Part shown: piece by piece, positions 20,331 through 36,087 of the stretch
Layout of the letters: every line of letters starts with the position of its first letter
How positions within the stretch are numbered: the first letter of the stretch is position 1
Source: a plasmid
Sequence record: NZ_CP088248.1
Length of the DNA stretch: 52,774 nucleotides
Strand: one strand, 5' to 3'
Notes under the pieces: model-generated
What the model was told of the DNA's origin: nothing
Seen by the model: only the letters and a program-made list of their open reading frames with translations
Databases searched by the model: none
Program-made: the position numbers and the translations under genes

Positions 20331-20709
20331 GTCTTGTAAGTGATCATCTATCCATCTCCGCCGAGCGCAGCAAGCAAGATTTTTCTTAAACGGCCTTCAC
20401 CCATGTGGAATTTTTTATCCAGTTTGAACTTGGCAGCAAAAAACTGGCGATTTGACCGAGCGCGGCAGCGTTCAGCGATCATAGACTGAAGGCACGTACG
20501 GCTGCGGCCAGAGCAGCAAGTCCGCCAAGGGCGACAGCCGAAATCAGCCGGGCACGCGCCCAGGGCCTGAAAGGATTATCGTTACAGGGCTTTGGCGCGC
20601 GACCGGGCCACCTCCGCCATTTACGCTCCGCATTATGAGCATCGAGCATGGCCTGAAGACCTTGCCTATCAGGCTGAAGGAGGCATGACATGAATGACGT
20701 CCTTGGCGG

Positions 20710-21120
20710 CTATTCGCCGTTGGAGCTCTGGACGAGTTGAGCTGTGCTGCGGACGATCGCCAGAACCTCACGACGCACCTGGTCGTCTTCGATCTCGGCG
20801 TAAGCACGCAGCAGCTCAACAGCCCCCTTGGCATGCAGGAAGCCGAGCAGCTCGGTTTGCTCCCGAGCAGTGGGGTTATCGCTATCCTCGAAGAAGGTGG
20901 AGACCGGCACTTCGAGCAACCGGGCGATCTCGCGCAGGCGTCCCGCGCCAACGCGGTTCTGGCCCTTTTCGTACTTTTGAACCTGCTGGAAGGTCACGCC
21001 TACTGCAAGTCCGAGAGCGGTCTGACTCAATCCACGTGCCTTACGCAGCGCTGCAATCCGAAGCCCGACAAGCCGGTCTGCCTCCGTAACCCGCTTCGGC
21101 GGCCCGCTGGAGATGTCCAT
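20710..21120 (-). CDS. XRE family (Cro/C1-type HTH) transcriptional regulator
   Basis: LRIAALRKARGLSQTALGLAVGVTFQQVQKYEKGQNRV is a classic HTH_3. Confidence 0.8.
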   Translation of the reverse strand: MDISSGPPKRVTEADRLVGLRIAALRKARGLSQTALGLAVGVTFQQVQKYEKGQNRVGAGRLREIARLLEVPVSTFFEDSDNPTAREQTELLGFLHAKGAVELLRAYAEIEDDQVRREVLAIVRSTAQLVQSSNGE

Positions 21121-21665
21121 CCTGCTAATCCTAAAATCTTAAATTCACGCTTGTTGTCGAATGTTGATTACAGCTTAATGGCGCTGCAATTTCAAGCGGT
21201 CGCCTTAGCTGCAATAAGGCCATCGGTAGCTCGAAGCTCGTAGATTACTCTCAGTGCGAACTTCCTTTGACTTCGGCATAAGGAACAGCAACGGCCTTCT
21301 TGCCCTCAATCCGCAAATAATGAAATACGATTTTACAGAAATGCGGGTTTGCAGCCTCTCACTAGGGTGCAGCCGCAGAAAGCAGCGTTCCACCATGTCG
21401 TCACAGGGCTGGAGGCGCCCTTGTCGGCCTAGCCGCCGAAAAAATGTAAGATGGCCAGTGGTTTGAGTCCCGACCATTCTGCCAGTTGCGCTGCTGCGAC
21501 TGATGGCACAGCAAAAAGGCCGCCGAGCAGGTGCTCTAGGCGGTCTAATAGGAAAGCGGTCCAGAAAAAGCTTGCCCCGGCGGTATGCTAGGCAGGGACC
21601 GACCGGGGGTTACGTGATAAGTTATGGGGCAACCGACCGAAAAATTCAAGTGAAATCCGCTTTTC

Positions 21666-22340
21666 GTGCCCACCTTCGTTGACGTCCTTTCCAGCGACCG
21701 CTTCGCCACCTACCAGCACTGGGCCGACGGTGATGATGCTCTGGCGCTCCGGCTCTACACCTTCAACGTCCAGCTCTCGGCGGCCCTCTATGGGCCGCTG
21801 CACATGCTCGAGGTGACACTGCGCAACCGGGCTGATGCCCAACTGATGACGGTGTATGGCCCGGACTGGCTCGACGACCCAGTCGCCCTTCCCGGCCGCT
21901 ATCAGCGTGACTGCGTGATCAAGGCCCGCGCCACGCTGCTGGGCGAGCGCAAAGCCGCCAGCCACGGGCAGATGGTGGCCGAGCTGACGTTCGGATTTTG
22001 GACTTCGCTGTTTGGCCGTGACGGGACGCACCTGTGGCAGCATCTTCGGCCTATCTTCCAGGCCAAGGGCATTCAGCGAGGCCTGATCGCCGGGCAGCTG
22101 CGCGACCTCCGGCACCTGCGCAACCGGGTCGCCCACTACGAGCCGATCCTCACCCAGCCCCTCGCCCAGCGCTACGGCAATCTCACCACCCTCACCGGCT
22201 GGCTCTCGCCGACCGCCGCGGCCTGGATCGCCCAGACGTCCGCCTGGGGAGCGCTCTACCCGGCTGTACCGGTGCTTGTGCCGAACGCTGCCGGTGACCT
22301 GCGCGTCGAGCCAGCTGTCATTCCCTTCCTGCCAGCCTGA
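21666..22340 (+). CDS. Abi family protein (Abi_2/AbiD-AbiF-like abortive-infection protein)
   Basis: TFGFWTSLFGRDGTHLWQHL...LRHLRNRVAHYEPIL resembles the Abi_2 signature (FGxW...RNRxAHHE). Confidence 0.55.
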   Translation: MPTFVDVLSSDRFATYQHWADGDDALALRLYTFNVQLSAALYGPLHMLEVTLRNRADAQLMTVYGPDWLDDPVALPGRYQRDCVIKARATLLGERKAASHGQMVAELTFGFWTSLFGRDGTHLWQHLRPIFQAKGIQRGLIAGQLRDLRHLRNRVAHYEPILTQPLAQRYGNLTTLTGWLSPTAAAWIAQTSAWGALYPAVPVLVPNAAGDLRVEPAVIPFLPA

Positions 22341-22954
22341 TATCCGGAAATACGATTTTCCTGTTTTGCGGCGACTGGCTCTATCCTGATGCCGCATGGG
22401 CCAGTCGGCCGTGCCGGCGTCAAGGCACGCTGCGCTCTCCGGCCTTGACCCCATCCCGTCCGACCGGCGGTGGGCTGCCAGTGGGGCAAAGCCCCAAACT
22501 GACCAGCAGAGCTGATCCGCTTCTGCAGAAATCCGCTTTTACGACGGATTGGAGTGGCTTGGGACTAGGCTGCAACCCGTGCCCAGTGCGGAGCGGACGA
22601 ACGCGGCCTTAGGCGGCGTCATGATCGCGGCTGAAACCATCGCCGTCCCGGGCCTGGCAGGAGCCTGATCGGGTCCGGGGGCGCCCTCCCCTACACAATG
22701 GCCGGCGGCTGTGGCGGCACTGTGTGTGAGCGGGCTGGTGTGCCTCTCCCGGCAAGCCAGCCTCTCCCCTGCGGCCAGGCGGTTCGGGAGATGCGCCGGA
22801 GGCTGTCCCGGTCAAGCGGCTGCCCGCTCCGTTCGCGTGCGCTCCCGTGTTGCCGATGACCAGGACCGGCCGGAGGCCTCAGCCCCGCGGCGCAGCAGAA
22901 CTCCCGACCGGCCGCGATGGGCGTGGCCGGTACCAGCAAAGGGAGATCCACACC

Positions 22955-23164
22955 ATGACCCGCACCACCACCAACAACCGTCCGAGCCACGCCGTCTACG
23001 TGGTCGAGGGAGAGGGCGAGAACGCCTTCTGGACCCGGATCGGCGCCGCCTGGGCACATGAGGATGGCGACGGCTTCAACCTTCAGCTCAGCTGCCTGCC
23101 GCTCACTGGCCGCCTGGTCATCCGCAAGCCGCGACCGAAGACTGACGGGGAGCTGGCCCAATGA
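22955..23164 (+). CDS. DUF736 domain protein
   Basis: NAFWTRIGAAWAHEDGDGFNLQLSCLPLTGRLVIRK matches DUF736 (FWTRIGAAW...G.GFSv.LDALPLNGRlV). RBS AAGGGAG upstream. Confidence 0.6.
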   Translation: MTRTTTNNRPSHAVYVVEGEGENAFWTRIGAAWAHEDGDGFNLQLSCLPLTGRLVIRKPRPKTDGELAQ

Positions 23165-23487
23165 GCCGCACCACCGCGATCCAGCGTCTCAACGACGCCC
23201 TACGCTCTCAGCTGACCGGCGGTCGGCTGATGCTCACCCCAGGAGTCAGCCAACTGGCTCCGCTCGACCGGCTGGCGGTGCTGAACCTGATGCGCGATTT
23301 TAGCGCGTTCACGCCGGACAACGATCCTCACGGCGAGCACGACTTCGGCAGCGTCGAGCACAAGGGCACGCGCTACTTCTGGAAGATCGACTACTACGAC
23401 CTCCAGTTGGCGATGCACTCGCCGGACCCGGCCGATCCGGCGGTGACCGTCCGGGTCCTCACGCTGATGCGCGCCGACGAGTACTAA
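23161..23487 (+). CDS. DUF3768 domain protein
   Basis: TPDNDPHGEHDFG...YFWKIDYYD...DPADPAVTVRVLTLM, as in DUF3768. The start overlaps the DUF736 gene stop. Confidence 0.6.
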   Translation: MSRTTAIQRLNDALRSQLTGGRLMLTPGVSQLAPLDRLAVLNLMRDFSAFTPDNDPHGEHDFGSVEHKGTRYFWKIDYYDLQLAMHSPDPADPAVTVRVLTLMRADEY

Positions 23488-24044
23488 CCGGCTGCGCTGC
23501 CCGAACCGCCCTCCGGGGCGGTTTCAGCTTTGGCCATCATGTGGGCCTTCACCCGATTGATCGCCTTACGGTTCTTCCGTGCAAACCGCTGCAGGTGCTC
23601 GAATGCTGTCGCGCTCGATTTCGCTTCGATAAAGCGCTGCTGCCACTCCGGCATACCCTCAATCACAGCCAGAGAGTCGATAATTTTTTCGCGGAGGATC
23701 TTTTTGGGATAGCGCCCCAATAGGCCTCCATTCAAGGCAACTGTCCGCAGCTCAAGAAAATTCATAAACTCCAGGAAGGCAGCATCCTGCTCGTCCGGCT
23801 TGTCACGAGAACGAAGTAGCGCCTGCTCACGCTCAGTCACAGCATTGAACAGCTCTTGCAGGGCCTGCAAATCACCTGCCTTGCGGCCCGCTCGTAGTTG
23901 AGCACCGACGTAGAAGAGGGCTGCAAGAGCGATAAGCGCTTGTAGTGCAGTGCCAGCAGCCGACAGTGCAGCCCACTGTTTTTCATCGAGCAGAGCGTAG
24001 ACTGCGCTTGCGCCCTGGCTGAGCAGCGATAGTGCCGAGTCCAA
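23484..24044 (-). CDS. Hypothetical protein, first of three small minus-strand ORFs (23484..24469)
   Basis: ORF only. One hydrophobic segment. Confidence 0.4.
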   Translation of the reverse strand: MDSALSLLSQGASAVYALLDEKQWAALSAAGTALQALIALAALFYVGAQLRAGRKAGDLQALQELFNAVTEREQALLRSRDKPDEQDAAFLEFMNFLELRTVALNGGLLGRYPKKILREKIIDSLAVIEGMPEWQQRFIEAKSSATAFEHLQRFARKNRKAINRVKAHMMAKAETAPEGGSGSAAG

Positions 24045-24592
24045 TCTCAGGACTTCCCTGTTGCCAAGGGACGCTGAACCACTGGCGGCGGTGCCGGTTG
24101 CGCAGGCTGTGCCTGCTGGGGCAGCGCCGATTGCAGCAAGCGCTGTGGCAAGCGCTGTGGCAAGCTGCGGCGCAGGTTATCGGATGTCATGCCACCATAG
24201 AAACTCATATGCTGATCGAGCAGATCGTCGACGTGCAGGGGGGCAAGCCTGGGCAGTTTAGGGATCATAGCGTCGGCTTAGTCCTTCTTTTGAGGAGGGG
24301 GTGGTGCGGCCGGAGGAGCTGCGGGGGCTGCGGGAGCCGGTGGCGTAGGACGCAATGCGCCGCTGAGGTTGGCTGAAGTCAGCCCACGCTGCAGCAACGT
24401 CGACGATAAGCCATCATTGGCTTGCGTCGGACGACTCGGTTGAGGTCGATCGGGACGGCGAGCTGTCAAATGTAACTCCTAAAGGTTTGATACGCTTGAA
24501 TTAAGCGGTGAATGTAGCCCGAAACCACTTGCGGAACAAACAGGAAACGCACTAGCTTGTGTTGCAAGTGGAACGTGCAGGGGGGTGAATCA

Positions 24593-25081
24593 GTGAGGGT
24601 CGGAGTCAGCGGGCATCAGGCACGGCCAGGCATCGACTGGAACTGGGTAGCTGATGCAGTTCGAGCAGAGTTGGCTCAGTGCTCGACCATCACTCAGGCG
24701 CTTACCTCACTCGCTGTCGGAAGTGACCAGATATTTGCACAATGCGCACTAGAGATGAATGTGCCTGTTCTCGCTGTGATCCCTATCCACAACTATGAGA
24801 GTTTCTTCGAAGGGGACGGACTCGCCCGTTACCGCGAGCTTCTCGCCGCTAGTGAGCGGCTCGATCTTAACACCACCGACGAGCCCGAACCGGCCTTCTA
24901 TGCAGCTGGGCGTTATATCGTTGAGCGTTGCGATCTCCTGTTGGCTATTTGGGACGGTAAGCCTGCTGCTGGTTTGGGTGGAACCGGTGATGCTGTTGAG
25001 TACGCTCTTCAGCAGGGTAGATCCTGCATTATAATTGATCCAATCCAGAAGACCGTTAGCCGCATCAACCGTGGAGAATGA
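24593..25081 (+). CDS. SLOG/LOG/DprA-like Rossmann-fold protein (candidate nucleotide-signal sensor)
   Basis: VGVSGHQARPGIDW...SLAVGSDQIFAQCALEMNVPVLAVIPI...CDLLLAIWDGKPAAGLGGTGDAVEYALQQGRSCIIID follows the G-rich P-loop-like plus xxGxD pattern of the SLOG/LOG/DprA superfamily. GTG at 24593 with GGGGGTGA RBS. The alternative TTG at 24557 lies inside an inverted repeat. Confidence 0.5.
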   Translation: MRVGVSGHQARPGIDWNWVADAVRAELAQCSTITQALTSLAVGSDQIFAQCALEMNVPVLAVIPIHNYESFFEGDGLARYRELLAASERLDLNTTDEPEPAFYAAGRYIVERCDLLLAIWDGKPAAGLGGTGDAVEYALQQGRSCIIIDPIQKTVSRINRGE

Positions 25082-25087
25082 GACCTG

Positions 25088-25477
25088 ATGGCCAAAAAAC
25101 GTGTGTTTGTCAGCTTCGATTACGATCACGATCAATTTCTGAAAACCGCTATCGTCGGTCAGGCGAAGCTGGCGGACAGTCCTTTCGAACTGGCCGACTG
25201 GTCAATCAAGGAGCATCTGACGGGTGACTGGAAGGCTAAGGCCCGCACACGGATCAGGAGCGTCGACATCGTCATCATCATGTGTGGCCAGCACACCCAC
25301 ACAGCTGCTGGTGTAAATGCAGAAATGAAAATCGCGCAGGAGGAAGGGGTGACCTACTTCCTACTCAAAGGGTACGCCGACAAGACATGTACAAAGCCTT
25401 TGAGCGCAACGAGCCGGGACAATCTCTACGCATGGACTTGGGATAATCTGAAGAAGCTCATCGGTGGAGCTCGCTAG
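25088..25477 (+). CDS. TIR-like domain protein (ThsB-like/DUF1863)
   Basis: MAKKRVFVSFDYDHDQFLK... matches the ThsB/DUF1863 N-terminal motif (MAKRVFFSFHYQD). 129 aa. Lies 6 nt downstream of the SLOG-like gene. Confidence 0.65.
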   Translation: MAKKRVFVSFDYDHDQFLKTAIVGQAKLADSPFELADWSIKEHLTGDWKAKARTRIRSVDIVIIMCGQHTHTAAGVNAEMKIAQEEGVTYFLLKGYADKTCTKPLSATSRDNLYAWTWDNLKKLIGGAR

Positions 25478-25479
25478 CC

Positions 25480-26475
25480 ATGAAGAAGGCCCTGGTTGTC
25501 GGGATTGACGACTACCATTCCGCACCTTTGCAAGGGTGCGTGAACGATGCATCTTCCGTAGCGCAGCTTCTCGAGCGCAATGGTGACGGTTCCCCGAACT
25601 TCTCCGTCAGGCTGCTCACCAGTGACAAGCTTGAGGTCAATGCACAGGTTCTGCTGCAGGCCATCACTGAGCTTTTCAGCGGCGATGCCGATACGGCTCT
25701 GCTGTTTTTTGCTGGGCATGGGATCATCAACCCGGAAACGAATGCCGGCTATATCGTCAGTCAGGACGGGCGGAAGCCCAGTTGGGGAGTCACGCTATCT
25801 GACATCCTCCATCTGGCCAACCAAGCGTACCCGCGCGTGAAGTCGAGCGTGATCATCCTAGACAGCTGTCAATCCGGCTATGCTGGTGAAATCCAAGGAC
25901 TTGGTTCGGCAGCGAACCAACCGTCGGTGATCGGTAACGGAGTAACAATCCTGACCGCTTCACATCGGGAGGGTACTGCCGCCGAAGAGGATGGGCATGG
26001 ACTCTTCACTAGCATCCTCCTTGATGGTTTGAGCGGTAGCTCGGCTGATGTAATCGGCCGGATTACGCCGGCATCCGTGTACTCCCATATCGATCAGACG
26101 CTTGGGCCTTGGAAACAGCGTCCTGTTTACAAGGCGAACGTGCAAACCTTTGTAACGCTACGCAATGTGGCTCCAAAGATCCCCCACGAGGTGCTGCGAC
26201 GACTGCCAGAGTACTTTCCAGACCCGGCGCACGTGTTTCAACTGGATCCATCCTACGAGCCTGACCGTGAGAATGTGCCGGAGCGCGTTAAGCACATCCC
26301 GGTCGACGAAGATCACAAGCGTATCTTCAAGGAGCTACAGCTTTGTAATCGGCATGGTCTCATCGTGCCCGTCGATGCTGAGCACATGTACTATGCTGCG
26401 ATAGACTCCAAAGGATGTCGTCTTTCTGCGCTTGGTGCCCACTACAGAAAGCTCGCGATCCTTGGGCGTATATAG
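25480..26475 (+). CDS. Caspase-like (peptidase C14/metacaspase family) protein with an uncharacterised C-terminal domain
   Basis: KKALVVGIDDYHSAPLQGCVNDASSVAQLL...LLFFAGHGI...IILDSCQSG gives the His (AGHG) and Cys (DSCQSG) catalytic dyad context of caspase/metacaspase. Confidence 0.8.
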   Translation: MKKALVVGIDDYHSAPLQGCVNDASSVAQLLERNGDGSPNFSVRLLTSDKLEVNAQVLLQAITELFSGDADTALLFFAGHGIINPETNAGYIVSQDGRKPSWGVTLSDILHLANQAYPRVKSSVIILDSCQSGYAGEIQGLGSAANQPSVIGNGVTILTASHREGTAAEEDGHGLFTSILLDGLSGSSADVIGRITPASVYSHIDQTLGPWKQRPVYKANVQTFVTLRNVAPKIPHEVLRRLPEYFPDPAHVFQLDPSYEPDRENVPERVKHIPVDEDHKRIFKELQLCNRHGLIVPVDAEHMYYAAIDSKGCRLSALGAHYRKLAILGRI

Positions 26476-26489
26476 ATAAGTGAGGGGAT

Positions 26490-26966
26490 ATGAAGGTCTT
26501 CCTTTCTCATCAAAAGGCCGACTCTGAGACTGCAGGGATTATCGCAACTAGATTGAAGCTTTATCACCAAATTGACGTCTATCTGGACGTTGTTGATCCA
26601 AACGCGTCAACAACGGGAGACGATCTAGGAGAGTACTTGCGCCAGCAGCTCTCAATTTGCACCCAGCTGATGGCAGTTGTGTCCGCTGCAACGAAAACCT
26701 CGTGGTGGGTACCGTGGGAAATTGGTGTTGCTACCGAGAAGGATTATCCGATCGCCACCTTTGCGGGAGGCTACACGACGCTGCCCGAATATCTGCGCAA
26801 GTGGCCTTACCTTCAGTCCATGAGTGATGTCGATGCTTATGCTGAGGCAAGCAAGATGGCACAGCGCGAGTTCAAGAACCGGAGAACCTATCAAACGGAT
26901 AGCTTAGCGCGGCGTAGCTCTACAAAAGACTTTTATCGCGTGTTGCGCTCAAGCCTACGTCAGTGA
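26490..26966 (+). CDS. TIR domain protein (TIR_2-like)
   Basis: MKVFLSHQKADSETA...SWWVPWEIGVA matches bacterial TIR motifs (vFiSh..D, S.WC..El). Confidence 0.7.
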   Translation: MKVFLSHQKADSETAGIIATRLKLYHQIDVYLDVVDPNASTTGDDLGEYLRQQLSICTQLMAVVSAATKTSWWVPWEIGVATEKDYPIATFAGGYTTLPEYLRKWPYLQSMSDVDAYAEASKMAQREFKNRRTYQTDSLARRSSTKDFYRVLRSSLRQ

Positions 26967-27559
26967 CTTTGGTTAAGGCATATCCGTGGTCCTCGGCAAG
27001 CCTACTGAGACGTGTGGCCGCCCTGTCCTCTGCTGCGCAGCGCCTCGTTTCGCTAGTGGGCAGACCGTCAGGATGCGGACTGACGCTACAAGGACAAAGC
27101 GTCTAGGATCCAGATAACGACAATGCCCCTCCCCGGTAACACCCGGAGATGGAGGAACCTACACAGAACATCGCCTGAAAGCTGCCCACCCGTTCCTTAT
27201 CTGGTTCCCGGCCGGGCTTTTGCGTTGAGGCCCGGTGGCGGGCGCGGCATACGCCAGCCGCGCCCCTGCCTCGCTGGAGTGGGATCAAGACCAGTGCTTT
27301 GCGATTGAGCCACTGCCAGGGCGCAACACTGCCTTTCCGGAAATCCGCTTTTACGATTATACGCTGATGAGCAGCTGTCAGGTGCGCCAGGTGCTGGCGA
27401 TCATACAGGGGCAGAGACAGGTGGCCCCGGCTCATCCCCGGACGACGTCGCTACGGAACCAGGCCCTACGGGTACGGCCGCCGGCATCCCAGAGGGACCC
27501 TGCCTCAGCGGTTCGGCCGCGATGATGATCCCGCTTCTGTGCGCCGCCTCGAGGGCGGC

Positions 27560-27745
27560 GCTGCTGTATGTTTAAATACGATTTTGCGACTCTGCGGTTT
27601 TCTGGAAATGTGTCCCAGAGGTAACAGGCATCGTGCGCAGCGTTAACGAACCGTTGGCAGAGGCGTGTTTGTGTGAAATCGTGAACCTACAGAAACGGGT
27701 TTGCAGAAAATCGTAAATCCGACGATACGCAAATCCAGAAAGGCG
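27560..27745. repeat. Candidate parC-like centromere/operator region upstream of parA, containing several copies of the TACGATTTT/AAAATCGTA and TGCAGAAA motifs
   Basis: AAATACGATTTTGCGAC (27574..27590), GAAATCGTGAAC, CAGAAACGGGTTTGCAGAAAATCGTAAATCCGACGATACGCAAATCC (27680..27727). Confidence 0.5.
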
Positions 27746-27749
27746 GCGC

Positions 27750-28412
27750 ATGATCATCGGGGTGCTCAACCAGAAAGGCGGAGTCGGTAAAACGACCCTC
27801 GCCACCAACCTGGCGGCGGTCATCGCCAAGGCCGGCTACCGTGTGCTGCTGGTCGACGCCGACCCGCAGGGCAGCTCTATGGCTTGGTCGTCCGTGCGCG
27901 AGGCCGAGCCGCTGTTCCCGGTGATCAGCATGGCCAAGCCAACCCTGCACCGCGACCTGCCGGAGATCGCGGCCGACTACGATGTGGTGATTATCGACGG
28001 CGCACCCAGGGTCAACGACCTCGGCCGCGCTGCGATCCTGGCCAGCGATGTGGTGCTCATGCCGGTGCAGCCGTCGCCCTACGACGTATGGGCCTCGGCC
28101 GACACGGTGCAACTGGTCAAGGAGGCCCAGCAGTTTAAGGAAAACATCAAACCCGTTTTTGTGGTGAACCGCAAAATCGTAAATACGGCGATCGGGCGCG
28201 ATGTGCATAATGCCCTGTCCCAGTTCGAATTTCCGATCCTGCCGGTGGAGATTTGCCAGCGCGTCGGCTTCGCCGAGAGCGCCAGCCAAGGCATGTCCGT
28301 GATCGAGACGGACCCCAAGAGCGATGCCGCACAGGAAATCAGCCAGCTGGCCGCCCAGCTTGTCGACATGAAAGCCAAACCCAAGACCAAGAAGGAAAGG
28401 AAGGCCGCATGA
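27750..28412 (+). CDS. parA: ParA family partition ATPase (small type Ib)
   Basis: Deviant Walker A KGGVGKTT, and VLLVDADPQGS. Confidence 0.9.
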   Translation: MIIGVLNQKGGVGKTTLATNLAAVIAKAGYRVLLVDADPQGSSMAWSSVREAEPLFPVISMAKPTLHRDLPEIAADYDVVIIDGAPRVNDLGRAAILASDVVLMPVQPSPYDVWASADTVQLVKEAQQFKENIKPVFVVNRKIVNTAIGRDVHNALSQFEFPILPVEICQRVGFAESASQGMSVIETDPKSDAAQEISQLAAQLVDMKAKPKTKKERKAA

Positions 28413-28714
28413 GCAAGGGAGCCAAGCAGGTCTCGTTCAAGGTGCCCGCATCCAAGCTGGCGCCGGCTGCCGACGCCTGGATCGCCAACCGCGGTGCCGA
28501 GCCCACGACTACGGATAGGGAAGGGGGCTCCGTGACCGCCCTCAAGGCTGTTGAAGCCGCTCCGGCGCCGGAGCCGAAGGAGAAGATGTCCCGCTTCACC
28601 ATCGACGTGCCGGAAAGCCTGCACCGCCGTGTGAAGATGCAGTGCGCGGCACGCGGTCAGAAGATGGCCGACATGATGCGGGATCTGCTCGAGCGCGAGT
28701 TCCCGACATCGTAA
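28409..28714 (+). CDS. Ribbon-helix-helix (ParG/CopG-like) partner protein of ParA
   Basis: C-terminal RHH (SRFTIDVPESLHRRVKMQCAARGQKMADMMRDLLERE). ATG at 28409 overlaps the parA stop (ATGA). The longer 28253 frame is an artefact. Confidence 0.7.
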   Translation: MSKGAKQVSFKVPASKLAPAADAWIANRGAEPTTTDREGGSVTALKAVEAAPAPEPKEKMSRFTIDVPESLHRRVKMQCAARGQKMADMMRDLLEREFPTS

Positions 28715-28765
28715 ATCCGCTGATGCAGAATTCCGCTTTTACGATCTTCCGGAAATCCTGGTGTG
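28708..28765. repeat. Motif cluster between parG-like and repA: ATCGTAAATCCGCTGATGCAGAATTCCGCTTTTACGATCTTCCGGAAATCC
   Basis: Contains both orientations of the (T)ACGAT core plus TGCAGAA and CCGGAAATCC, all shared with copies at 22341..22547 and 27337..27358. Confidence 0.5.
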
Positions 28766-29995
28766 AGTGATCCCGTCCGTCTCGACCTGATGCCCCTCGA
28801 CGCGTTCGGGGCCCTCGGGCTGCATGAGAAGAACGCCTACCTGCAGGCGCTGGCGGACACGTTCTGCGCCAGGACCGGCCGCGAGACCCTTGTCCTCAAC
28901 AAGGACGCGCTGAGCCGCCTCCGGCGCTTCTACAGCCGGCGCAGCCTGGCTGACCTCAAGGTCGGGCCTGAGCCGACAGACCCGATCGGCATCGCCCTCA
29001 AAGCGCTCGGTGATGCGGTCAAGCTCAACGAGCGCCAACCCGATATCGTCGGCGCGCTGGTCTCTGAGCTGCCGGCGCCGGTGATGCGTGAGGCGCCCGA
29101 CGACGACGCCCAGCTCGCGTTCTTCGTGCCCAACATCTACGACGCGCCGCTCAAGGACGACGTCAACCTGATGGATGTCGCGCCATTCTCGCTCGGCAAG
29201 GCCAAGCGGGAAGGGGTCATCCGTTACGAGCTGAAGGACTGCATCATCACGATCGATGGCAGCGCCTCAGCCGGCCTCGCCACCGTGTTCGACTACGACA
29301 TCTTCCTGCACATGGTTTCGAGCCTCGCCGATGAGGCCAACCGGTACCGCCGAGCGTTGGAGAAAGGACTTCGTATCGATGTACCGGCGCGGGTCTACCG
29401 ACCTAATGCTGCGCACATCCTCAAGTTCTGCCGTCGCTCCAACGGCGGCAAACAGTACAAGGACCTCGAGGCCGCGCTGGACCGACTCAAGGGCACCAGC
29501 GTCAAGGTGGTCAATCTCGGCAACGGCAATCGCCGTGAGATGATCTCGATGTCGCTGATCCAGGACTACCGGACAGTCAGCCGCACCACGACAGGCAACG
29601 TCGACCAGGTCGAAATCGAGATCCCCGATTGGGTCTACGATGGCGTGGTGCGCCAGAAGGGAAACCCGCAGATCCTGACCTTGAACGCCGACTACTTCCT
29701 GATTTCACAGGGGCTTGGCCGCTACCTTTATCGGCTGTCCAAGCGTGCTGCCGGCAAAACCGTCGCCCGCTACGGAATGACCGAAATCCACAAGCGCAGC
29801 GGCTCCAAACAAGCTCTGCCGCAGTTTGCCCATCAGGTGCGCAAATTCGTTGAAAGCACCAAGATCGCGCCGTTGCCCGAATACGACCTAGAGATCATCC
29901 CCGGCAAACGCGAAGACGTGCTTATCATGCGGGCGCGCGGCACCGAAACCTTGCACGCAGGTGCCGTGGTCGCCCCCGAGCTTCCGTTCGACTGA
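28763..29995 (+). CDS. repA: Plasmid replication initiator RepA (Replication initiator protein A/RPA family)
   Basis: FFVPNIYDAPLKDDVNLMDVAPFSLGKAKREGVIRYELKDCIITIDGSASAGLATVFDYDIFLHMVSSL matches the RPA-family N-terminal domain. GTG start. Iteron-containing oriV lies immediately downstream. Confidence 0.8.
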   Translation: MSDPVRLDLMPLDAFGALGLHEKNAYLQALADTFCARTGRETLVLNKDALSRLRRFYSRRSLADLKVGPEPTDPIGIALKALGDAVKLNERQPDIVGALVSELPAPVMREAPDDDAQLAFFVPNIYDAPLKDDVNLMDVAPFSLGKAKREGVIRYELKDCIITIDGSASAGLATVFDYDIFLHMVSSLADEANRYRRALEKGLRIDVPARVYRPNAAHILKFCRRSNGGKQYKDLEAALDRLKGTSVKVVNLGNGNRREMISMSLIQDYRTVSRTTTGNVDQVEIEIPDWVYDGVVRQKGNPQILTLNADYFLISQGLGRYLYRLSKRAAGKTVARYGMTEIHKRSGSKQALPQFAHQVRKFVESTKIAPLPEYDLEIIPGKREDVLIMRARGTETLHAGAVVAPELPFD

Positions 29996-30019
29996 CTCCG
30001 TTTTTGTCAGCGATTTTTG

Positions 30020-30330
30020 TCAAAACCGTACTTCGCCAATCGGGGCAGCAGCGGGCCGAAGGCCACAGCCGCGCTGTGGATAATTCTTGTCAATGCCGTA
30101 CTTCATCAACCAAAAACCGTACATCATAAATGTCAAACCGTACTTCGCCTATGACAAGCCGTACATCATAAATCTGAGGGCCGTACTTCGCCAATCAAGG
30201 ATGGCCTCAAGTCACTGATTTTAACCAATGTTTTTTGTCAGAGGGGCAGGTCGCTAATGCCTAAAACTCTTAAAGTCTTTTAAAACACTCTAAAACACCG
30301 GTTCTGTGGATAACTTCGGGGTTGCACCGT
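30020..30330. other. oriV: six iterons, two perfect DnaA boxes (TGTGGATAA at 30075..30083 and 30305..30313) and an AT-rich stretch (30200..30300)
   Basis: Read directly. See the iteron feature. DnaA box TTATCCACA on the reverse strand, twice. Confidence 0.8.
30026..30195 (+). repeat. Iterons, core CCGTAC(T/A)TC(G/A)(C/T)C(A/T)A(T/A), six copies. Starts at 30026, 30096, 30117, 30138, 30159, 30181, each preceded by GTCAA(A/T). The last four are tandem at 21-22-bp spacing.
   Basis: CCGTACTTCGCCAAT, CCGTACTTCATCAAC, CCGTACATCATAAAT, CCGTACTTCGCCTAT, CCGTACATCATAAAT, CCGTACTTCGCCAAT. Confidence 0.85.
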
Positions 30331-30758
30331 TACGAAAACTGGTGCAGCAGCCCGATTCGACCTATCTGGCAAATCCAGTGCAACGGAAAGCCCGCCCCTT
30401 TTTGGCTCCGCCAAAAACCCGCTCCCCCACCCAATGCGGAAGCCGCCTCCGGCGGCTGATTCCAAAATGGGTCCTCCTAACGGCGAACAAGAGGGGCTGC
30501 CGGGACTGTGGGTGGCAGATCGACCTCAGTGGCCCCTGGAGACGTTTTGGGCTGCTCAGCCGACAGAGAGCGGCAAGAGGCTTGAAAAACCCGCTACAGC
30601 CCTCCTGAGAGGCTTTGTCCCGCGCCTTGCGCGGGGAGGATGATGGTGCGGTCGCTCTGCGACCGCTGAACCAGCCTGACTCGAGATGGAGGAAGCTGGA
30701 GACATCGGCGCAGGACCGGACCAGGGGGCCCATGTTCTGGCAGCCGGTTTTGTCAAAA

Positions 30759-30773
30759 CCGTACATCATCAAT
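30759..30773 (+). repeat. Distal seventh iteron CCGTACATCATCAAT (preceded by TTTTGTCAAAA)
   Basis: Same core, about 560 bp from the array. Confidence 0.6.
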
Positions 30774-30984
30774 GCGCTTGGCCGATAGGTTGGGGAGGTC
30801 AGACCAACCAACCGGGTGCCACCTAAGGTTCTACATGGGCGCCCGCAAAATCGTATTTCTGTAAATCCGATTTGCAGGATTTGCAGAATTATGTGTGCGA
30901 GATGGCTAATGGGGTAGAGGTTGAGCGGTGCCGATTGGCCGCTAAGGACCATACGCGCGTGCGGTAATCACGGATGGCGTGGAT

Positions 30985-31221
30985 ATAATGGCATCAACGG
31001 TGACAGCCATCCCACAGGTGAAATGGCTGCCGATCCCTTCACGGTCATCGCCATCCCTGGCTGTACCGTGAGATCATGCTGACACAAAAAACCGATCCCT
31101 TCGAGAAAATCCTAGCGGGGGTACGGGGGCCGGTAATGAGGCCCCCGCGCGCGTAGCGCGTGGAAAGGCTCGCGCCGTAGGCGCGACCGCATCGCCCCGC
31201 GCAGCGGGGCGATCGTTTTTT
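30985..31221 (+). ncRNA. Candidate small structured RNA: TATAAT-like -10 (30985..30990), three consecutive GC hairpins, the last an intrinsic terminator
   Basis: Hairpins GGGGGCC-N9-GGCCCCC (31124..31146), TCGCGCC-GTA-GGCGCGA (31170..31186), ATCGCCCCGC-GCA-GCGGGGCGAT plus T6 (31191..31221). No convincing ORF on this strand. Confidence 0.3.
31191..31221 (+). terminator. Intrinsic terminator (10-bp perfect stem, 3-nt loop, T6)
   Basis: ATCGCCCCGC GCA GCGGGGCGAT CG TTTTTT. Confidence 0.6.
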
Positions 31222-31576
31222 AGGGCGTGAAACCAACGGCGCCCGTGAAACCGCAGTAACCCCCTGCAGTGTCCGTCCACACCTGCACGGCAACCATGCC
31301 GCCGATTCCGCCGAAGATCAGGCCCACTCCGGTCGGCCGCGTCCACGGGAAAATGGCGAGGAAGACTCCAAGCACCATCAACAGCTGGCTCAGCCCCGGC
31401 CCGAGGCTGTTGATGATCGGGTGCCCAATCGAGCAGGCGAGCCAACGCGGGACCCCGGTGTCGAACCCGAGCCAGTGCAGTCCGGCAACCGTACCCCCAG
31501 CGATCACAAACAGGGCCAAGCCACTGACCAGATCATCGTCGAGGGAACGGCTGCGCATGAGGTGAGCCTTCTGCAT
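31220..31576 (-). CDS. Small membrane protein (3 TM), divergent from the relaxase gene
   Basis: Hydrophobic helices (LALFVIAGGTVAGL, LLMVLGVFLAIF, LIFGGIGGMVAV). Confidence 0.45.
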   Translation of the reverse strand: MQKAHLMRSRSLDDDLVSGLALFVIAGGTVAGLHWLGFDTGVPRWLACSIGHPIINSLGPGLSQLLMVLGVFLAIFPWTRPTGVGLIFGGIGGMVAVQVWTDTAGGYCGFTGAVGFTP

Positions 31577-31641
31577 GGGTGTTGGCTGAATGGGTGCTGC
31601 GGACACAGGCAGCTGCAAAAGAAGGTCTAGCGTTTTGTAAT

Positions 31642-31684
31642 GGCGCACTTATACATTGGGTATCCAACATAGGTGCGCCCCGGC
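31642..31684 (+). other. Candidate oriT: inverted repeat GGCGCAC...GTGCGCC followed by an RSF1010-like nic-region core ATAGGTGCGCCCC
   Basis: Lies in the divergent intergenic region immediately upstream of the MOBQ relaxase. GGTGCGCC resembles the RSF1010 nic core TAAGTGCGCCCT. Confidence 0.4.
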
Positions 31685-31722
31685 CACAGGCCGTGGGCGT
31701 TGCGGTGGCAACGGAGGGCGCA

Positions 31723-32973
31723 GTGGCATCTTTCCACTTCTCGGCCCAGGTCATCGGAAGGGCGAAGGGGCGGTCGGCAATCGCCGCTGCGGCGTACCGT
31801 GCTGGCGAACGGCTGAGAGACGATCAGACCGGCGCGGAACACGACTTCACTCGCCGTCAGGGCGTCGTGCACACCGAGATCATGCTGCCAGACGGGGCTG
31901 CACCCTGGCTGGCCGACCGACAGAACCTCTGGAACCACGTCCACCAGATCGAGACTCGCCGCGACGCTCAACTCGCCCGCGAGATCAATCTGGCCCTGCC
32001 GCATGAACTCCCAGCCGAGGAGCGGCTGGCCTTGTTGCGTAACTTCATCCGCACCGCGTTCACCGACCGCGGCATGGTCGCGGACTTCGCCATCCACGCA
32101 CCGACCGATAACGATCCGCGCAACCATCACGCCCACGTGATGCTCACCCTGCGGAAGGCCACGCCGACGGGTCTGTACCGGGTCAAAACCCGGGAGTGGA
32201 ACTCGGACGCTCTGCTCAACACCTGGCGTGAAAGCTGGGCGACTTGGCAGAACCACTACCTTGCCCGTGGCCAGCATGAAGCGCGGGTTGATCACCGCAC
32301 ACTTGCGGTTCAGCAGGCGGATGCCCGGAACCGCGGCGACCGACTGGCTGCCGCAAGTCTTGACCGGCCGCCGGAAATCCACGTAGGCCCGCGGGCGCAG
32401 AACGCGGCGAGGCGTGGGGCTAAGCCGAAGAGCCTGCCGCGGACTGATCTGACCGCCCGCCCCCAAGGCGGCGCCTGGCGCTCCGCGAAGGCTGGCGGGA
32501 ACCGGCAGCGCGATATCACCTACCCACAGATCGATCGAGGCTCCCGGGCTGCCTACAACGCGCGCCGCGGCGCCCTTGCCGCGGCCGCAGTCTCCCGCCA
32601 CGTCGAAACCGTCCGGGCGCGCACGGCGCGGCTGAGGCTGATTGAAGGGCGCTACCTCAAGGCACTGCGGGCAACCAAGGAAGGCCTGCGCGACCTGCCG
32701 CGCGAACGTGGAGGCTTCCGGCGCTCGGGTGATCCGGCGCAACGCGCCAATCGCCTGGCCCTCATGTTGAATCGTCGTGCCCATCTACTGCGTCGGCTCC
32801 AGCTGCTGCGGTTGCTGTTGGGGCGGACCGACACGATCCTTAGCGGCCTGTTTCAGGTGCAGGATCGCGCGTTTGGACGAAGCCGCATCCTCACGGATCG
32901 GCTGTTGCCGCGGGCTAACGCGAGCGTGCGCGTGAACCTCCGGCCCGGGCGTAGCCGGGACCTGCTGTGGTAG
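31723..32973 (+). CDS. MobA/MobL family (MOBQ) conjugative relaxase
   Basis: ASFHFSAQVIGRAKGRSAIAAAAYRAGERL (catalytic Tyr motif I), HHAHVMLTLR (3-His motif III). GTG start with GGAGGG RBS. Confidence 0.85.
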   Translation: MASFHFSAQVIGRAKGRSAIAAAAYRAGERLRDDQTGAEHDFTRRQGVVHTEIMLPDGAAPWLADRQNLWNHVHQIETRRDAQLAREINLALPHELPAEERLALLRNFIRTAFTDRGMVADFAIHAPTDNDPRNHHAHVMLTLRKATPTGLYRVKTREWNSDALLNTWRESWATWQNHYLARGQHEARVDHRTLAVQQADARNRGDRLAAASLDRPPEIHVGPRAQNAARRGAKPKSLPRTDLTARPQGGAWRSAKAGGNRQRDITYPQIDRGSRAAYNARRGALAAAAVSRHVETVRARTARLRLIEGRYLKALRATKEGLRDLPRERGGFRRSGDPAQRANRLALMLNRRAHLLRRLQLLRLLLGRTDTILSGLFQVQDRAFGRSRILTDRLLPRANASVRVNLRPGRSRDLLW

Positions 32974-34522
32974 GTGCGTCCGGCATGTCGTCGTCATCAC
33001 CGAACCACCTGCTGGTGGGCAGAGTCACCACCACACCTTCAGCCTGCCGCCACGCATCGTAGAGGCCACGCCAGCGCCACTCCTTGTAGTAGCGGACCTT
33101 GGTGCCCTTGATCGGCGCACCGACCTGGTCGGGCATCATAATGATGCACTGGTTCGGGTTCATGAACCGCACCTCAGCAGCATCCAGCAGATCCCGGCCG
33201 GTTTCCGACTGGCCGTCCTGATGCTGCGCCCGGACCAGGCTCAAATTGCCGGCGGCAGTGCCGTAGGAGCTCGACATCACCGTCTGACGGCCGATGCCTT
33301 CGGCTACCTCACGGGCCGTCCGCGTGTCGGACACCCCGAACATCACCTGGGCGCCGGATCCGGCGATGAACGTGGTCGCGGTCTCCTGACCATAGAGCGC
33401 GCGCAGCTGGCCGAGGTCCTGAAAAATGATGACCGTCTGGCAGTAAGCCCTGAGCATGCCCATACCGGTGGCCAGAATGTCGAGGCGACCGAGGGCCTTG
33501 GCCTCATCGATCAGCAGCATCGGCTTGTGTGCCGGCGGCGGGCGGTCCTTGCTGCGCATCAGCGCGGCGACGGCACAGCCCATCATCACCCGCAGGAACG
33601 GCGTGAAGATATCGATCTTGTCGTCCGGCACCATCAGGTAGACGGACATCCCTTCCCGGCTGAGATCCTCCATCCGGAAGTCCGAGGCCTGGGTGATCCA
33701 TCCCCCGACCCGGTCCTTGCTCCAGAACGCCATGCCCTTGGCCGTGTTGTTCAGCACCGACTGGGTTTCCGGGTGTTCCAGGCCGTTGAGCGTGATGCGG
33801 CCCTGCTCGGCAATCGAAGGAATCCGGCTGCTGGCCATCTCCTCGAACAGCCCGCGCAGGGTCTCGCCCTCGGCGGCGATCAACTCGCGCACTAATGAGA
33901 GCGTCTGCTGCTCCTCGGGGTACGCGTGCAGGACGTGGCGGATCACCGCCGTGAGGACGTTCTTGGCGCTGGTGTCCCAGTGCCCCTCCCGGCTTTCCGG
34001 GATGACCAGAAAGCTGGCCAGCTGCGCCGTGTCGGTGTCCTCGTGGAAGGTGCCCTTGCGGATCATGGAGAGCGGGTTGAAGAAGTCGCTCTCCTCGGGA
34101 TGGATCGCGTCCAGGCGCCAGACCGGGCCCAGGGTTGAGCGATGCCGCTGCGTCACTGCGAAGTTTTCACCCTTCGGGTCAGTGACGATCACCGAACCCT
34201 TGTGGTCCAGGAGATTGGGCACGACCACGCCGACGCCCTTCCCCTTGCCCTGAGGAGCTACGCACAGCACCGCACCGTCGCCCTTGAAGCGGATGAACTG
34301 GCCGTAGGCCATGCCGACGATCAGCCCCTTGCTGCCGCCTAAGGCGTCGCCGCGCACCAGGTCATAGAAGCCGGCCCAGCGTGCCGACCCATGCGACGTC
34401 GGCCGTGACCGCAAGGCCTTCCGGCCCTGGCGGAACCCGTGCTTGAGCAGGAAAGCCAGCAGCCAAGCGGCCCACCTGAGCACGCGGAACACAACACGGA
34501 CGAGCAGCCAAAGCACGCGCAT
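32915..34522 (-). CDS. traG: Type IV coupling protein TraG/VirD4 family
   Basis: Walker A APQGKGKGVGVVVPN, TraG/VirD4 core (VIVTDPKGE, MLLIDEA Walker B). Confidence 0.85.
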   Translation of the reverse strand: MRVLWLLVRVVFRVLRWAAWLLAFLLKHGFRQGRKALRSRPTSHGSARWAGFYDLVRGDALGGSKGLIVGMAYGQFIRFKGDGAVLCVAPQGKGKGVGVVVPNLLDHKGSVIVTDPKGENFAVTQRHRSTLGPVWRLDAIHPEESDFFNPLSMIRKGTFHEDTDTAQLASFLVIPESREGHWDTSAKNVLTAVIRHVLHAYPEEQQTLSLVRELIAAEGETLRGLFEEMASSRIPSIAEQGRITLNGLEHPETQSVLNNTAKGMAFWSKDRVGGWITQASDFRMEDLSREGMSVYLMVPDDKIDIFTPFLRVMMGCAVAALMRSKDRPPPAHKPMLLIDEAKALGRLDILATGMGMLRAYCQTVIIFQDLGQLRALYGQETATTFIAGSGAQVMFGVSDTRTAREVAEGIGRQTVMSSSYGTAAGNLSLVRAQHQDGQSETGRDLLDAAEVRFMNPNQCIIMMPDQVGAPIKGTKVRYYKEWRWRGLYDAWRQAEGVVVTLPTSRWFGDDDDMPDAPTTAGPGYARAGGSRARSR

Positions 34523-34583
34523 AGCCTACTCCAAAGTGGGTTTAATCAGAAGCTAAGTGACTGTTGTTGCATCACAAATGTGC

Positions 34584-35039
34584 TCAGCGTCCGCGCCCCT
34601 GCGTCCGCGTCTGAATGCGGATTTCACGCTCGGGAGGGGGAAGACGGTGCTGCTGCGCCAGGTGGGCACGAGCGTTCCGCACATCGCCAAGCCGCTCACT
34701 GAGGTGCTTCAGGTCACGCAGGGCCTCTGGCAGTTCACCGACTGCCGCAGCGACCGCCCGGCGGCGCCAGCCCAGGAACCCCGTGCGGAACACACCGAAC
34801 GTTAGCTCGCGGCGAAGGACTGTCTCCTCAAACACCGCAATCGCATGGACGAACCCGCGCCGGCGGCTCAGCTTACGGAACGCCTGCGCAGCCAGATGCG
34901 GGTAAACGAAAATCTCGCCCATCAGCCGCTGAGCACGGGCCTCCGCCAGGCCGATGCCGAGACGCAGATCACGCTCGAGGACATCGTAGTCATGCGGGAT
35001 GCCACCAGGCGGGGCCGATGCGGTTTCAGCTGCGGACAT
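34584..35039 (-). CDS. Hypothetical protein upstream of traG (possible transfer accessory protein). Start uncertain.
   Basis: ORF only. Its annotated start overlaps a divergent ORF start (CATG), so an internal start (MGEIF...) is possible. Confidence 0.35.
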   Translation of the reverse strand: MSAAETASAPPGGIPHDYDVLERDLRLGIGLAEARAQRLMGEIFVYPHLAAQAFRKLSRRRGFVHAIAVFEETVLRRELTFGVFRTGFLGWRRRAVAAAVGELPEALRDLKHLSERLGDVRNARAHLAQQHRLPPPEREIRIQTRTQGRGR

Positions 35040-35250
35040 GAATGATCTGCCCTATACTGTTGGGATGTTGAGTTTTATTTATGACCTATGGATTGTTTGG
35101 TTCAGCCGTGAGCCGGTGCCACAGAGCTGGTCAGAGCTCATCAAAGATGTGGAGCGACTTCACCCCAACGACCGCTATATTCAGCAATGGAATGCCGAGT
35201 ACGAGCTCATTCGGCGTCAGGAGCAAGGACAGCGCGGTCACGACGCCTGA
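35038..35250 (+). CDS. Small hypothetical protein in a low-GC pocket
   Basis: MNDLPYTVGMLSFIYDLWIVWFSREPVPQSWSELIKDVERLHPNDRYIQQWNAEYELIRRQEQ. Markedly lower GC than its surroundings. Confidence 0.35.
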   Translation: MNDLPYTVGMLSFIYDLWIVWFSREPVPQSWSELIKDVERLHPNDRYIQQWNAEYELIRRQEQGQRGHDA

Positions 35251-35256
35251 CTTAAA

Positions 35257-35286
35257 GGCGTAAAATCGTAAAACCGTATTTACGCC
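35257..35286. repeat. 30-bp palindromic element GGCGTAAAATCGTAAAACCGTATTTACGCC carrying the AAAATCGTA core
   Basis: Outer arms GGCGTAAA / TTTACGCC are perfect inverted repeats. Lies between convergent ORFs. Confidence 0.5.
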
Positions 35287-35287
35287 A

Positions 35288-36070: not shown

Positions 36071-36087
36071 CGTGATACCGTTCATGG

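Follow-up and report, generated by a model that had tools for sequence, protein, structure and literature searches.

We analysed a 52,774-nucleotide stretch of plasmid DNA (sequence record NZ_CP088248.1; hereafter the window) in which partition and replication genes follow one another on the plus strand amid arrays of short repeats. The gene parA (27750-28412, +) encodes a type Ib partition ATPase of 220 amino acids that matches the NCBIfam model NF041546 (ParA_partition) over residues 2-202 with 281 bits against a cut-off of 180, and also the Pfam families AAA_31 and CbiA; the protein is of the small Walker type, without an N-terminal DNA-binding domain. The parA stop codon is overlapped (ATGA) by the start of a parG-like gene (28409-28714, +), which encodes a protein of 101 amino acids with a C-terminal ribbon-helix-helix (RHH) domain. 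The gene for the replication initiator RepA of the RPA family follows (28763-29995, +; Pfam PF10134, 206 bits). Around and within these genes lie ten arrays of an 8-bp repeat, and our analysis makes it very likely that the arrays are binding sites of the plasmid's own ParG-type RHH centromere-binding protein, the product of the gene at 28409-28714.

A first-pass annotation had noticed the arrays as a dispersed family of AT-rich motifs with the 9-mer TACGATTTT at its core. All seven quoted copies, on either strand, are present (21326, 22351, 27577, 27707, 28173, 30847 and 35262), and the only intragenic one among them is indeed that at 28173, inside parA. Seven copies compare with 0.07 expected in the whole window, a number reached in none of 100 dinucleotide-preserving shuffles, and TACGATTTT ranked first among the over-represented 9-mers in a k-mer survey based on an order-3 Markov model (n=7 vs 0.18 expected). 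The G+C content of the window is 62%, and the figure of 68% given before was wrong. Some of the remaining details required correction. The near-exact copies at 27352 (TACGATTAT) and 28740 (TACGATCTT) deviate by one mismatch each; those quoted at 22537 and 28708 are more degenerate, though inside real arrays. Among the companion motifs, CCGCTTTTACGA is present three times (22533, 27345 and 28733), CCGGAAAT can be read directly off the sequence at 22344, 27337 and 28749, and TGCAGAA occurs at 22524, 27702, 28724 and 30882, two of its positions having been off by a few bases. The pair CAGAAA..GGGTTTGCAG was found at approximately 21336 and at 27689, not at 27680, and the 30-bp palindrome reported for 35257-35286 exists as a sequence with complementarity limited to its 8-bp ends. 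Copies of TACGGTTTT at 30022, 30113 and 30755 are RepA iterons and form a repeat family separate from the 9-mer.

The 9-mer with its companions had been taken for the unit of the family, which it is not. The functional unit is an 8-bp repeat with the consensus wwwTnCGn, that is, a spacer of about four A/T bases and then a 4-bp box with CG at its centre, and it is arranged in arrays of 4-11 units. TACGATTTT straddles the junction of two such units, and the companion motifs are adjacent units within arrays: in TGCAGAAAT, a GCAG box precedes an AAAT spacer, CCGCTTTTACGA consists of a CCGC box, a TTTT spacer and an ACGA box, and CCGGAAAT joins a CCGG box to an AAAT spacer. In an alignment of 39 non-identical 9-mer instances, taken from the window and from eight related plasmids, the conserved span was 24 bp or longer (A W n K c C G g A W W T A C G A T T T T s C G G), in which the C-G step repeats at -14, -6, +2, +10 and +18, thus every 8 bp. 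When framed in 8 bp, every site becomes a run of units such as aaatACGA, ttttGCGG, ctttCCGG, aaatCCGC and ttttACAG.

Two results are independent of this manual framing. Within 40 nt of the seven 9-mers, distances between CG steps peaked at 8 (14 vs 6.4 expected), 16 (13 vs 5.3) and 24 nt, nearly all other lags being at or below expectation; a repeat finder likewise gave offsets of 16 and 24 nt within sites. We also scanned the window for four consecutive in-phase units with an eight-column matrix that was built solely from flanking units of other plasmids, so that neither the window nor the 9-mer contributed to it. Exactly ten clusters exceeded the threshold, set at the 95th percentile of the null maximum (15.3) in 100 shuffles. 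All of them are at sites of the first-pass annotation and none elsewhere in the 52.7 kb; no array lies outside 21.3-35.3 kb. Unit-by-unit extension of the arrays gave approximately 55-60 credible units with the consensus w-w-w-T-n-C-G-n. The sites form a single family, composed of wwwTnCGn units in arrays of at least four, and more than 40 instances keep the exact 9-mer.

Three arrays lie immediately upstream of parA. Array 4 (27325-27364, +) has the highest score in the window (21.3) with five units (aacaCTGC, ctttCCGG, aaatCCGC, ttttACGA, ttatACGC), and its position, at the upstream edge of a conserved non-coding block, is kept in six related loci (L001, L002, L003, L006, L008 and L009). Array 5 (27566-27613, +; score 16.9) comprises five to six units (aaatACGA, ttttGCGA, ctctGCGG, ttttCTGG, aaatGTGT) and is conserved in four plasmids. 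The largest is array 6 (27655-27742, -; score 18.7), with 10-11 in-phase units that read ctttCTGG, atttGCGT, atcgTCGG, atttACGA, ttttCTGC, aaacCCGT, ttctGTAG, gttcACGA, tttcACAC and aaacACGC on the minus strand. It is almost invariant in four plasmids, and its end overlies the ribosome-binding site of parA, 8 nt before the ATG; the arrangement is alike in the Mesorhizobium plasmid L010. Array 6 is the best candidate for a core centromere and autoregulatory operator. Array 7 (28153-28192, -; score 18.2) is the one inside parA, where it covers codons 135-148 (atcgCCGT, atttACGA, ttttGCGG, ttcaCCAC, aaaaACGG). Array 8 (28705-28760, +; score 18.7) has seven units (gacaTCGT, aaatCCGC, tgatGCAG, aattCCGC, ttttACGA, tcttCCGG, aaatCCTG) and spans the entire 48-nt spacer between parG and repA up to the GTG start of repA, with 92% column identity in four plasmids; arrays occupy this position also in L010, L013 and L015. 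The six units of array 9 (30843-30890, -; aattCTGC, aaatCCTG, caaaTCGG, atttACAG, aaatACGA, ttttGCGG; score 18.9) lie about 850 bp past the repA stop. With the last iteron about 70 bp before it, the array closes the repA-oriV module. An array 780-850 bp after the repA stop was also found in L001, L002, L003, L005, L009 and L013.

The other four arrays are situated farther out. Array 1 (21299-21354, +; score 20.2) consists of six to seven in-phase units (caatCCGC, aaatAATG, aaatACGA, ttttACAG, aaatGCGG, gtttGCAG) in the divergent intergenic region between genes for an XRE-family regulator (20710-21120, -) and an Abi_2 protein (21666-22340, +), both recognised by profile match, and it lies 180-230 bp upstream of the XRE start. 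Its bases 21323-21346 are identical (24/24) to part of the array beyond oriV of plasmid pMPPM03 (L001). Array 2 (22340-22371, +; atatCCGG, aaatACGA, ttttCCTG, ttttGCGG; score 19.8) begins at the final base of the Abi_2 stop codon, and arrays at the matching post-Abi position are present in L001 (6827-6862) and L002 (6826-6865). Array 3 (22513-22544, +; tgatCCGC, ttctGCAG, aaatCCGC, ttttACGA; score 15.3) shares 90% identity over 30 nt with part of array 8. Array 10 (35250-35305, -; score 18.3), which is the palindrome of the first-pass annotation, has a core of four to five units (agtgGCGT, aaatACGG, ttttACGA, ttttACGC, ctttAAGT). It lies between the stop of a minus-strand gene (35288-36085) and the start of the minus-strand orf151 (34584-35039), 215 bp upstream of the latter. 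The gene orf151 precedes the gene for a T4 coupling protein (T4CP; 32915-34522, -), and a homologue is likewise found beside the T4CP gene in L013; in pMPPM03, an array (11636-11691) is located about 170 bp upstream of the T4CP gene.

Several conserved non-coding sequences accompany the arrays. The block between arrays 4 and 5 (27369-27573, ~200 nt) is present in all eight relatives of the Methylobacterium group, and its small indels speak against coding. RNAalifold folded it with 42 pairs, seven of them with compensatory changes, and with a terminal GC-rich hairpin (GCGCCGCC-TCGA-GGGCGGCGC); going by this model, the block may correspond to an RNA not recognised so far or to a structured DNA element in the par region. 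Neither the arrays nor the conserved block (27200-27760) matched any Rfam family, with E<=5 as the limit. Between arrays 5 and 6, GCGTTAACGAACCGTTGGCAG (27641-27661) does not vary among four plasmids, and distant ParG plasmids retain a recognisable form of it, GTTAAC...TTGGCA/CTGGGC. The element has no sigma-54 match; it may be the -35 region of the parA promoter or the site of another protein. Two promoter assignments were rejected: TACGAT as -10 and TTGCAG as -35 elements have misfitting spacings, and the conserved TTGGCAG upstream of parA, inspected by eye as a possible sigma-54 promoter, has no -12 element. A second block (21509-21661, ~150 nt) is 81-94% identical in L001, L002, L003, L007 and L008, occurs with or without the downstream Abi gene and is flanked by arrays in plasmid pMRAD05. 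The hairpin at its beginning (GGCCGCCGAGC...GGCGGYC) resembles an intrinsic terminator, since TTTTT comes next on the minus strand, and the block may represent a small minus-strand RNA. Beside array 2, a GC-rich hairpin (GTCAAGGC...GCCTTGAC, 22398-22479) recurs twice in L009 and, with 94% identity over 35 nt, where mobQ and the T4CP gene converge in L010; these plasmids probably share it as a terminator-like module.

By sequence homology, the 101-amino-acid protein is a homologue of ParG. A tblastn search found it to be ~40% identical to proteins annotated as ParG in 202 plasmids, and the only solved structure that it matched was ParG of plasmid TP228 (PDB 1p94; E=0.011), over the strand and both helices. 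Its other Pfam matches at E<=0.01 were RHH_10, FitA-like RHH and permuted GreAB-C. The window comes from a Methylorubrum/Methylobacterium plasmid, and the ParG encoded on one M. suomiense DSM 14458 contig shares 99% identity with the protein described here. The AlphaFold2 model comprises a C-terminal extended segment and helices at 69-81 and 86-97 with predicted local distance difference test (pLDDT) values of 76-87, compatible with an RHH fold; residues 1-58 were modelled with low confidence (block mean pLDDT 42-66). Among 24 homologues, the strand residues R62, T64 and D66 are invariant, and the basic N-terminus is conserved as well (K6 and K16 invariant; K3, K11, V12 and P13 nearly so).

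We compared the window with 12 related loci, most of them partial contigs (L numbers denote these loci). The positions of the arrays are held in the relatives, with two to four arrays upstream of parA, one within it, one following parG and one beyond repA as described above, even though the nucleotide identity of the plasmids is 70-85%. The two most informative loci differ from the window in one of the candidate binders each. Plasmid pMJ700743b of Mesorhizobium jarvisii (L010) encodes a Rep of the unrelated family RepA_C (PF04796; BLASTP E=4.5 vs the RepA of the window), and no CCGTAC iterons were found in it. The strand of its ParG (RFTIDV) is as in the window, and the plasmid has the same arrays before and within parA as well as after parG, one exact TACGATTTT included. 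L013, conversely, has a RepA 76% identical to that of the window and the same iterons. Its ParG is 72% identical with the strand RLTIDL, and TACGATTTT does not occur in its 20 kb; instead, it carries arrays of AACACAG units with an 8-bp period at matching relative positions (7211-7250, 8921-8952, 9168-9195, 9267-9306, 10320-10355 and 12462-12500). Arrays of this type were also found in L011 (9561-9604, 10720-10779 and 11313-11344). A Rhizobium plasmid with the ParG strand RLTIDM has ACAG-type arrays. The sister plasmids whose ParG strand is RL(T)ID rather than RF(T)ID have no array inside parA. Only ParA and ParG are common to all array-bearing loci. Array type thus varies with the ParG variant and independently of the Rep type, and the comparison of these loci ties the arrays to ParG, not to RepA or the XRE protein. 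As the first-pass annotation had proposed, the ParG-like RHH protein is by far the best candidate binder, judged from sequence. In the RL(T)ID sister group, centromere specificity seems to have switched naturally inside a single plasmid family.

The array inside parA offers a further view of this link. Codons 142-146 (AAA ATC GTA AAT ACG, K-I-V-N-T) are identical in ten plasmids with an F-type ParG, that is, with an RF(T)ID strand; the exception, GTA>GCA in L010, is non-synonymous. The A/T-ending codons at this array are rare elsewhere in these genes. For the peptide NRKI(V/A)NTAIG, 6-9 of 16 codons end in A or T in plasmids with an F-type ParG, compared with 0-1 of 16 in two RL(T)ID plasmids with ACAG arrays, which use GC-rich synonymous codons instead (AAG ATC GTC AAC ACC). 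A Fisher test on the synonymous sites of the 14-codon intragenic site gave only p=0.044, and the comparison between ParG types is the stronger evidence. The codon contrast indicates that selection acts on the DNA to preserve the site in parA, but only in plasmids whose own ParG fits it.

Other binders have to be considered. The arrays might be RepA sites, either dimer operators or auxiliary iteron-like sites, as in iteron plasmids that have partial iterons in the rep promoter. The 9-mer shares eight of nine bases with the iteron core TACGGTTTT, one array fills the spacer directly upstream of repA, another borders oriV, and the palindrome at 35257 contains 9-mer and iteron-core versions side by side. 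This explanation is rejected by the double dissociation between pMJ700743b, which has the same arrays with an unrelated Rep, and L013, which has AACACAG-type arrays with a closely similar RepA and identical iterons. The 8-bp period of the arrays also differs from the 21-22-bp spacing of the iterons. On the sequence comparison, RepA is not the binder of the arrays, and we regard the RepA explanation as extremely improbable. The XRE-family protein had also been named as a possible binder, and the proximity of array 1 to its gene speaks for it. The gene is present only in the window and in a near-identical copy (L004), whereas arrays are found in all 12 relatives, which is incompatible with XRE as a common binder. 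A host nucleoid protein or transcription factor that prefers AT-rich DNA would be a related alternative, since proteins of the H-NS or MucR type might be drawn to A/T tracts. Against it stand two plasmid-type loci of Methylorubrum populi, L001 and L013 (the latter assigned by the NCBI label on its ParG), whose array types differ, each following its own ParG variant; a host factor would not explain this. The more than 40 exact 9-mers and the codon constraint in parA also argue for a sequence-specific, plasmid-linked protein, and to our knowledge none of the consensus sites of IHF, CtrA and DnaA resembles the motif. Binding by a regulator other than ParG or RepA thus appears very unlikely. Finally, the copies could be remnants of mobile or recombinogenic DNA, similar to miniature inverted-repeat transposable elements, or chance low-complexity DNA bound by no protein. 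Arrays do lie at the edges of variable cargo (Abi, a 400-amino-acid ORF and a TIR/caspase island), and a few share stretches of 24-30 nt with each other or with arrays of other plasmids. The repeat finder detected only stretches of 22-52 nt with 64-90% identity, no longer shared element and no terminal repeats; moreover, the array positions are conserved between diverged plasmids, box type and ParG change together at positions that remain constant, and synonymous codons are constrained inside parA. We consider an origin from such elements or by chance scarcely credible.

A different question is how many of the arrays matter. The first-pass annotation had proposed a plasmid-wide operator network. 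The sites are indeed on the backbone, but the network was overstated, as nine of the ten arrays belong to one par-rep segment. In pMRAD05, the counterparts of arrays 1 and 4-9 occupy no more than 3.8 kb; in the window, insertion of the Abi gene and of a TIR/caspase island of 4.8 kb has stretched this segment. Array 10 alone is truly remote, and most of the apparent dispersal results from cargo inserted into a single par-rep segment. ParG may bind all arrays with only the par-proximal ones being of consequence, arrays 1-3, 9 and 10 being extra centromere or loading sites or neutral remnants of rearrangement rather than transcriptional operators, in which case no regulatory network would exist. 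In addition to the compact layout in pMRAD05, this is favoured by the Mesorhizobium plasmid, whose arrays are confined to 1.7 kb around par, by the absence of promoter motifs at the outlying arrays in a sigma-70 scan, and by the fact that several centromere sites per plasmid are normal, given six parS sites in pSM19035 and parC1 plus parC2 in pB171 par2. It is less easily reconciled with arrays 170-215 bp upstream of the T4CP operon or gene in two plasmids (the window and L001), with the arrays that L001 and L002 have between the Abi stop and the following cargo gene, and with L015, which has one array 7 kb from par. A purely par-proximal role is a real possibility that we rate somewhat below even. 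At the other extreme, ParG of this clade of alphaproteobacterial plasmids might act as a plasmid-wide dosage sensor whose arrays set repA expression, gate the coupling-protein (mobilisation) operon, and bracket and silence the slot for defence cargo upstream of parA. We think this rather doubtful. If it were true, partition, copy number, transfer and expression of defence cargo would hang on one RHH protein, the array in parA would be a roadblock or nucleation site, and the cargo slot would be one that repeatedly takes up defence genes (Abi_2, the TIR-caspase-TIR cluster and other ORFs).

The assignment of the arrays to ParG, which we favour, also has to be held against a number of observations that weaken it. 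The ParG-like protein scores just below the Pfam ParG gathering threshold (21.2 vs 21.4 bits), although its relatives in L010 and L011 clear it (23.7 and 22.8 bits). NCBIfam gave no model for the protein, nor for either Rep. A Foldseek search with the ParG-like model returned no significant match (best E=0.28); this is expected for a 40-residue domain modelled as a monomer, and the top matches were RHH proteins (Arc, CopG, VapB and FitA-type). The presumed DNA-facing residues R62, T64 and D66 are identical in nCGn-type and ACAG-type plasmids. A residue-level account of box specificity by these three residues was consequently rejected, and the F/L difference at ParG position 63 is the only one that correlates with array type. 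No promoter was found at any array in a scan for the sigma-70 consensus (three matches in 15 kb vs 2.9 expected). Array 3 barely reaches the threshold, array 10 would lie between convergent ORFs if a weak 83-amino-acid ORF (34999-35250) is real, and the statement that only ParA and ParG are common to the loci covers the flanks fetched from what are mostly partial contigs.

The closest known system is ParF-ParG of the enterobacterial plasmid TP228 (type Ib), in which the gene for a small ParA-type ATPase is likewise followed by a small RHH gene with ParG homology. ParG of TP228 binds 4-bp ACTC boxes separated by 4-bp AT-rich spacers in either orientation, with eight boxes in OF and 12 in parH; one dimer binds per box in a cooperative manner, and both OF and parH have centromere activity (PMC3130281). 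The arrays of the window also consist of degenerate 4-bp boxes and 4-bp AT-rich spacers in either orientation, just upstream of the ATPase gene. The box is different, being nCGn (ACGA, CCGC, GCGG and others) rather than ACTC, and the proteins are ~28% identical, in an approximate alignment for which only residues 24-69 of the TP228 sequence were confirmed. ParG of the window is longer than that of TP228 (101 vs 76 amino acids), with a longer N-terminal tail. In contrast to the single contiguous 20-box region of TP228, there are ten separate arrays of 4-11 units, with one each inside parA, between parG and the replication initiator gene, and beyond oriV.

In its multi-array layout, the system is reminiscent of the Firmicutes plasmid pSM19035, where the RHH protein omega is a centromere-binding protein and global regulator that binds several separate arrays with one dimer per short repeat. 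The delta/omega system has six parS sites of 7-10 contiguous repeats, at least four of which are needed for function, and the sites overlap promoters of par and copy-number control genes (PMC9499535). Our arrays also have at least four units, and one of them precedes the replication initiator gene. Omega, unlike the protein described here, recognises 7-bp heptads (WATCACW) rather than 8-bp units, and no omega-repressor family was among the Pfam matches of the ParG-like protein at E<=0.01. The replication systems and hosts differ as well, and while omega arrays overlap promoters, the arrays of the window are known only to abut the parA ribosome-binding site and to fill the repA spacer. For the par2 locus of plasmid pB171 (parC1-parA-parB-parC2), binding-site clusters on both sides of the par genes follow from the constructs cited in PMC4270457. 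The layout with arrays 4-6 upstream and array 8 downstream of the par genes is similar. The pB171 system is not known to have intragenic or remote sites. Partition-protein sites scattered over a replicon, some in promoters, link partition and regulation in the RK2 KorB/OB system and for SopB of the phage-plasmid N15. KorB and SopB are helix-turn-helix proteins of the ParB family acting on palindromic sites of 13-16 bp, unlike RHH proteins, which coat arrays of short repeats. The system of the window belongs to the known ParG/parH type and is not of a new kind; its own features are the different box, the multi-array layout and the intragenic site.

From these precedents we infer binding, cooperativity, repression and centromere activity by analogy. 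One ParG dimer would dock on each box, as in TP228, and neighbouring dimers would cooperate so that arrays of at least four units become coated. The coated arrays 4-8 (27325-27364, 27566-27613, 27655-27742, 28153-28192 and 28705-28760) would form the partition complex, which would recruit and stimulate the type Ib ParA ATPase. The array at the parA ribosome-binding site and that in the parG-repA spacer could double as operators, by which parA-parG would be autoregulated and repA expression coupled to the ParG level, much like the action of omega on copS, delta and omega. Arrays 1, 2, 3, 9 and 10 (21299-21354, 22340-22371, 22513-22544, 30843-30890 and 35250-35305) would bind the same ParG, either adding to the centromere or serving as operators for neighbouring genes, namely those of the Abi/cargo slot and the orf151-T4CP operon. 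The candidate centromere had been placed at 27560-27745. The region just upstream of parA remains the best candidate; it is wider, taking in at least arrays 4, 5 and 6 and probably also arrays 7 and 8.

The origin of replication itself is located downstream of repA. Six plus-strand oriV iterons (30002-30196) are spaced about 21-22 bp apart and have the core CCGTAC(T/A)TC(G/A)(C/T)C(A/T)AT; a seventh (30735-30774) is isolated, about 560 bp beyond this cluster. Two DnaA boxes (TGTGGATAA; 30075-30083 and 30305-30313) are part of oriV. The iteron core TACGGTTTTGACA resembles two ParG units (aagtACGG ttttGACA), which could be coincidence or reflect cross-talk between ParG and the origin. Farther downstream, a MobA/MobL relaxase gene (31579-32973, +) is preceded by a non-coding sequence (31035-31197) with 80-97% identity to L002 (12154-12317), L003, L009 and L010 (13973-14017). 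The neighbouring genes differ among those plasmids, and the sequence is a candidate for oriT or another backbone signal.

Between arrays 3 and 4, a cargo island of low G+C content (~22600-27100; 52-58%) has been inserted. It contains a DUF3768 gene (23161-23487) and genes for a TIR/ThsB-like protein (25088-25477), a caspase/CHAT protein (25480-26475) and a second TIR/ThsB-like protein (26490-26966), and the TIR-caspase-TIR genes are a candidate anti-phage defence cluster. The same slot holds a 400-amino-acid ORF in L001 and L002, and ORFs of 356 and 99 amino acids in L013. Beside the XRE gene, positions 20260-20337 (+) match Rfam family RF00519 (suhB/mmgR small RNA) over the full model length with 68.8 bits, compared with a gathering score of 41. 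This is the only Rfam match of the window at the gathering threshold and is unrelated to the arrays; on the strength of this match, it is a predicted gene for an alpha-proteobacterial regulatory small RNA carried on a plasmid.

Taken together, the arrays provide a concrete, testable definition of the proposed ParG centromere and operator (wwwTnCGn in arrays of at least four units) for widespread plasmids of Methylobacterium, Methylorubrum, Mesorhizobium and Rhizobium. They also delimit a minimal par-rep module (~27.3-30.9 kb) that would be useful for stable vectors in methylotrophs. The site inside parA is a clean case of a candidate protein-binding site that constrains codon usage. The nCGn and AACACAG variants, linked to F or L in the ParG strand, offer a handle on how RHH centromere proteins evolve specificity, and possibly on how related plasmids escape partition incompatibility.

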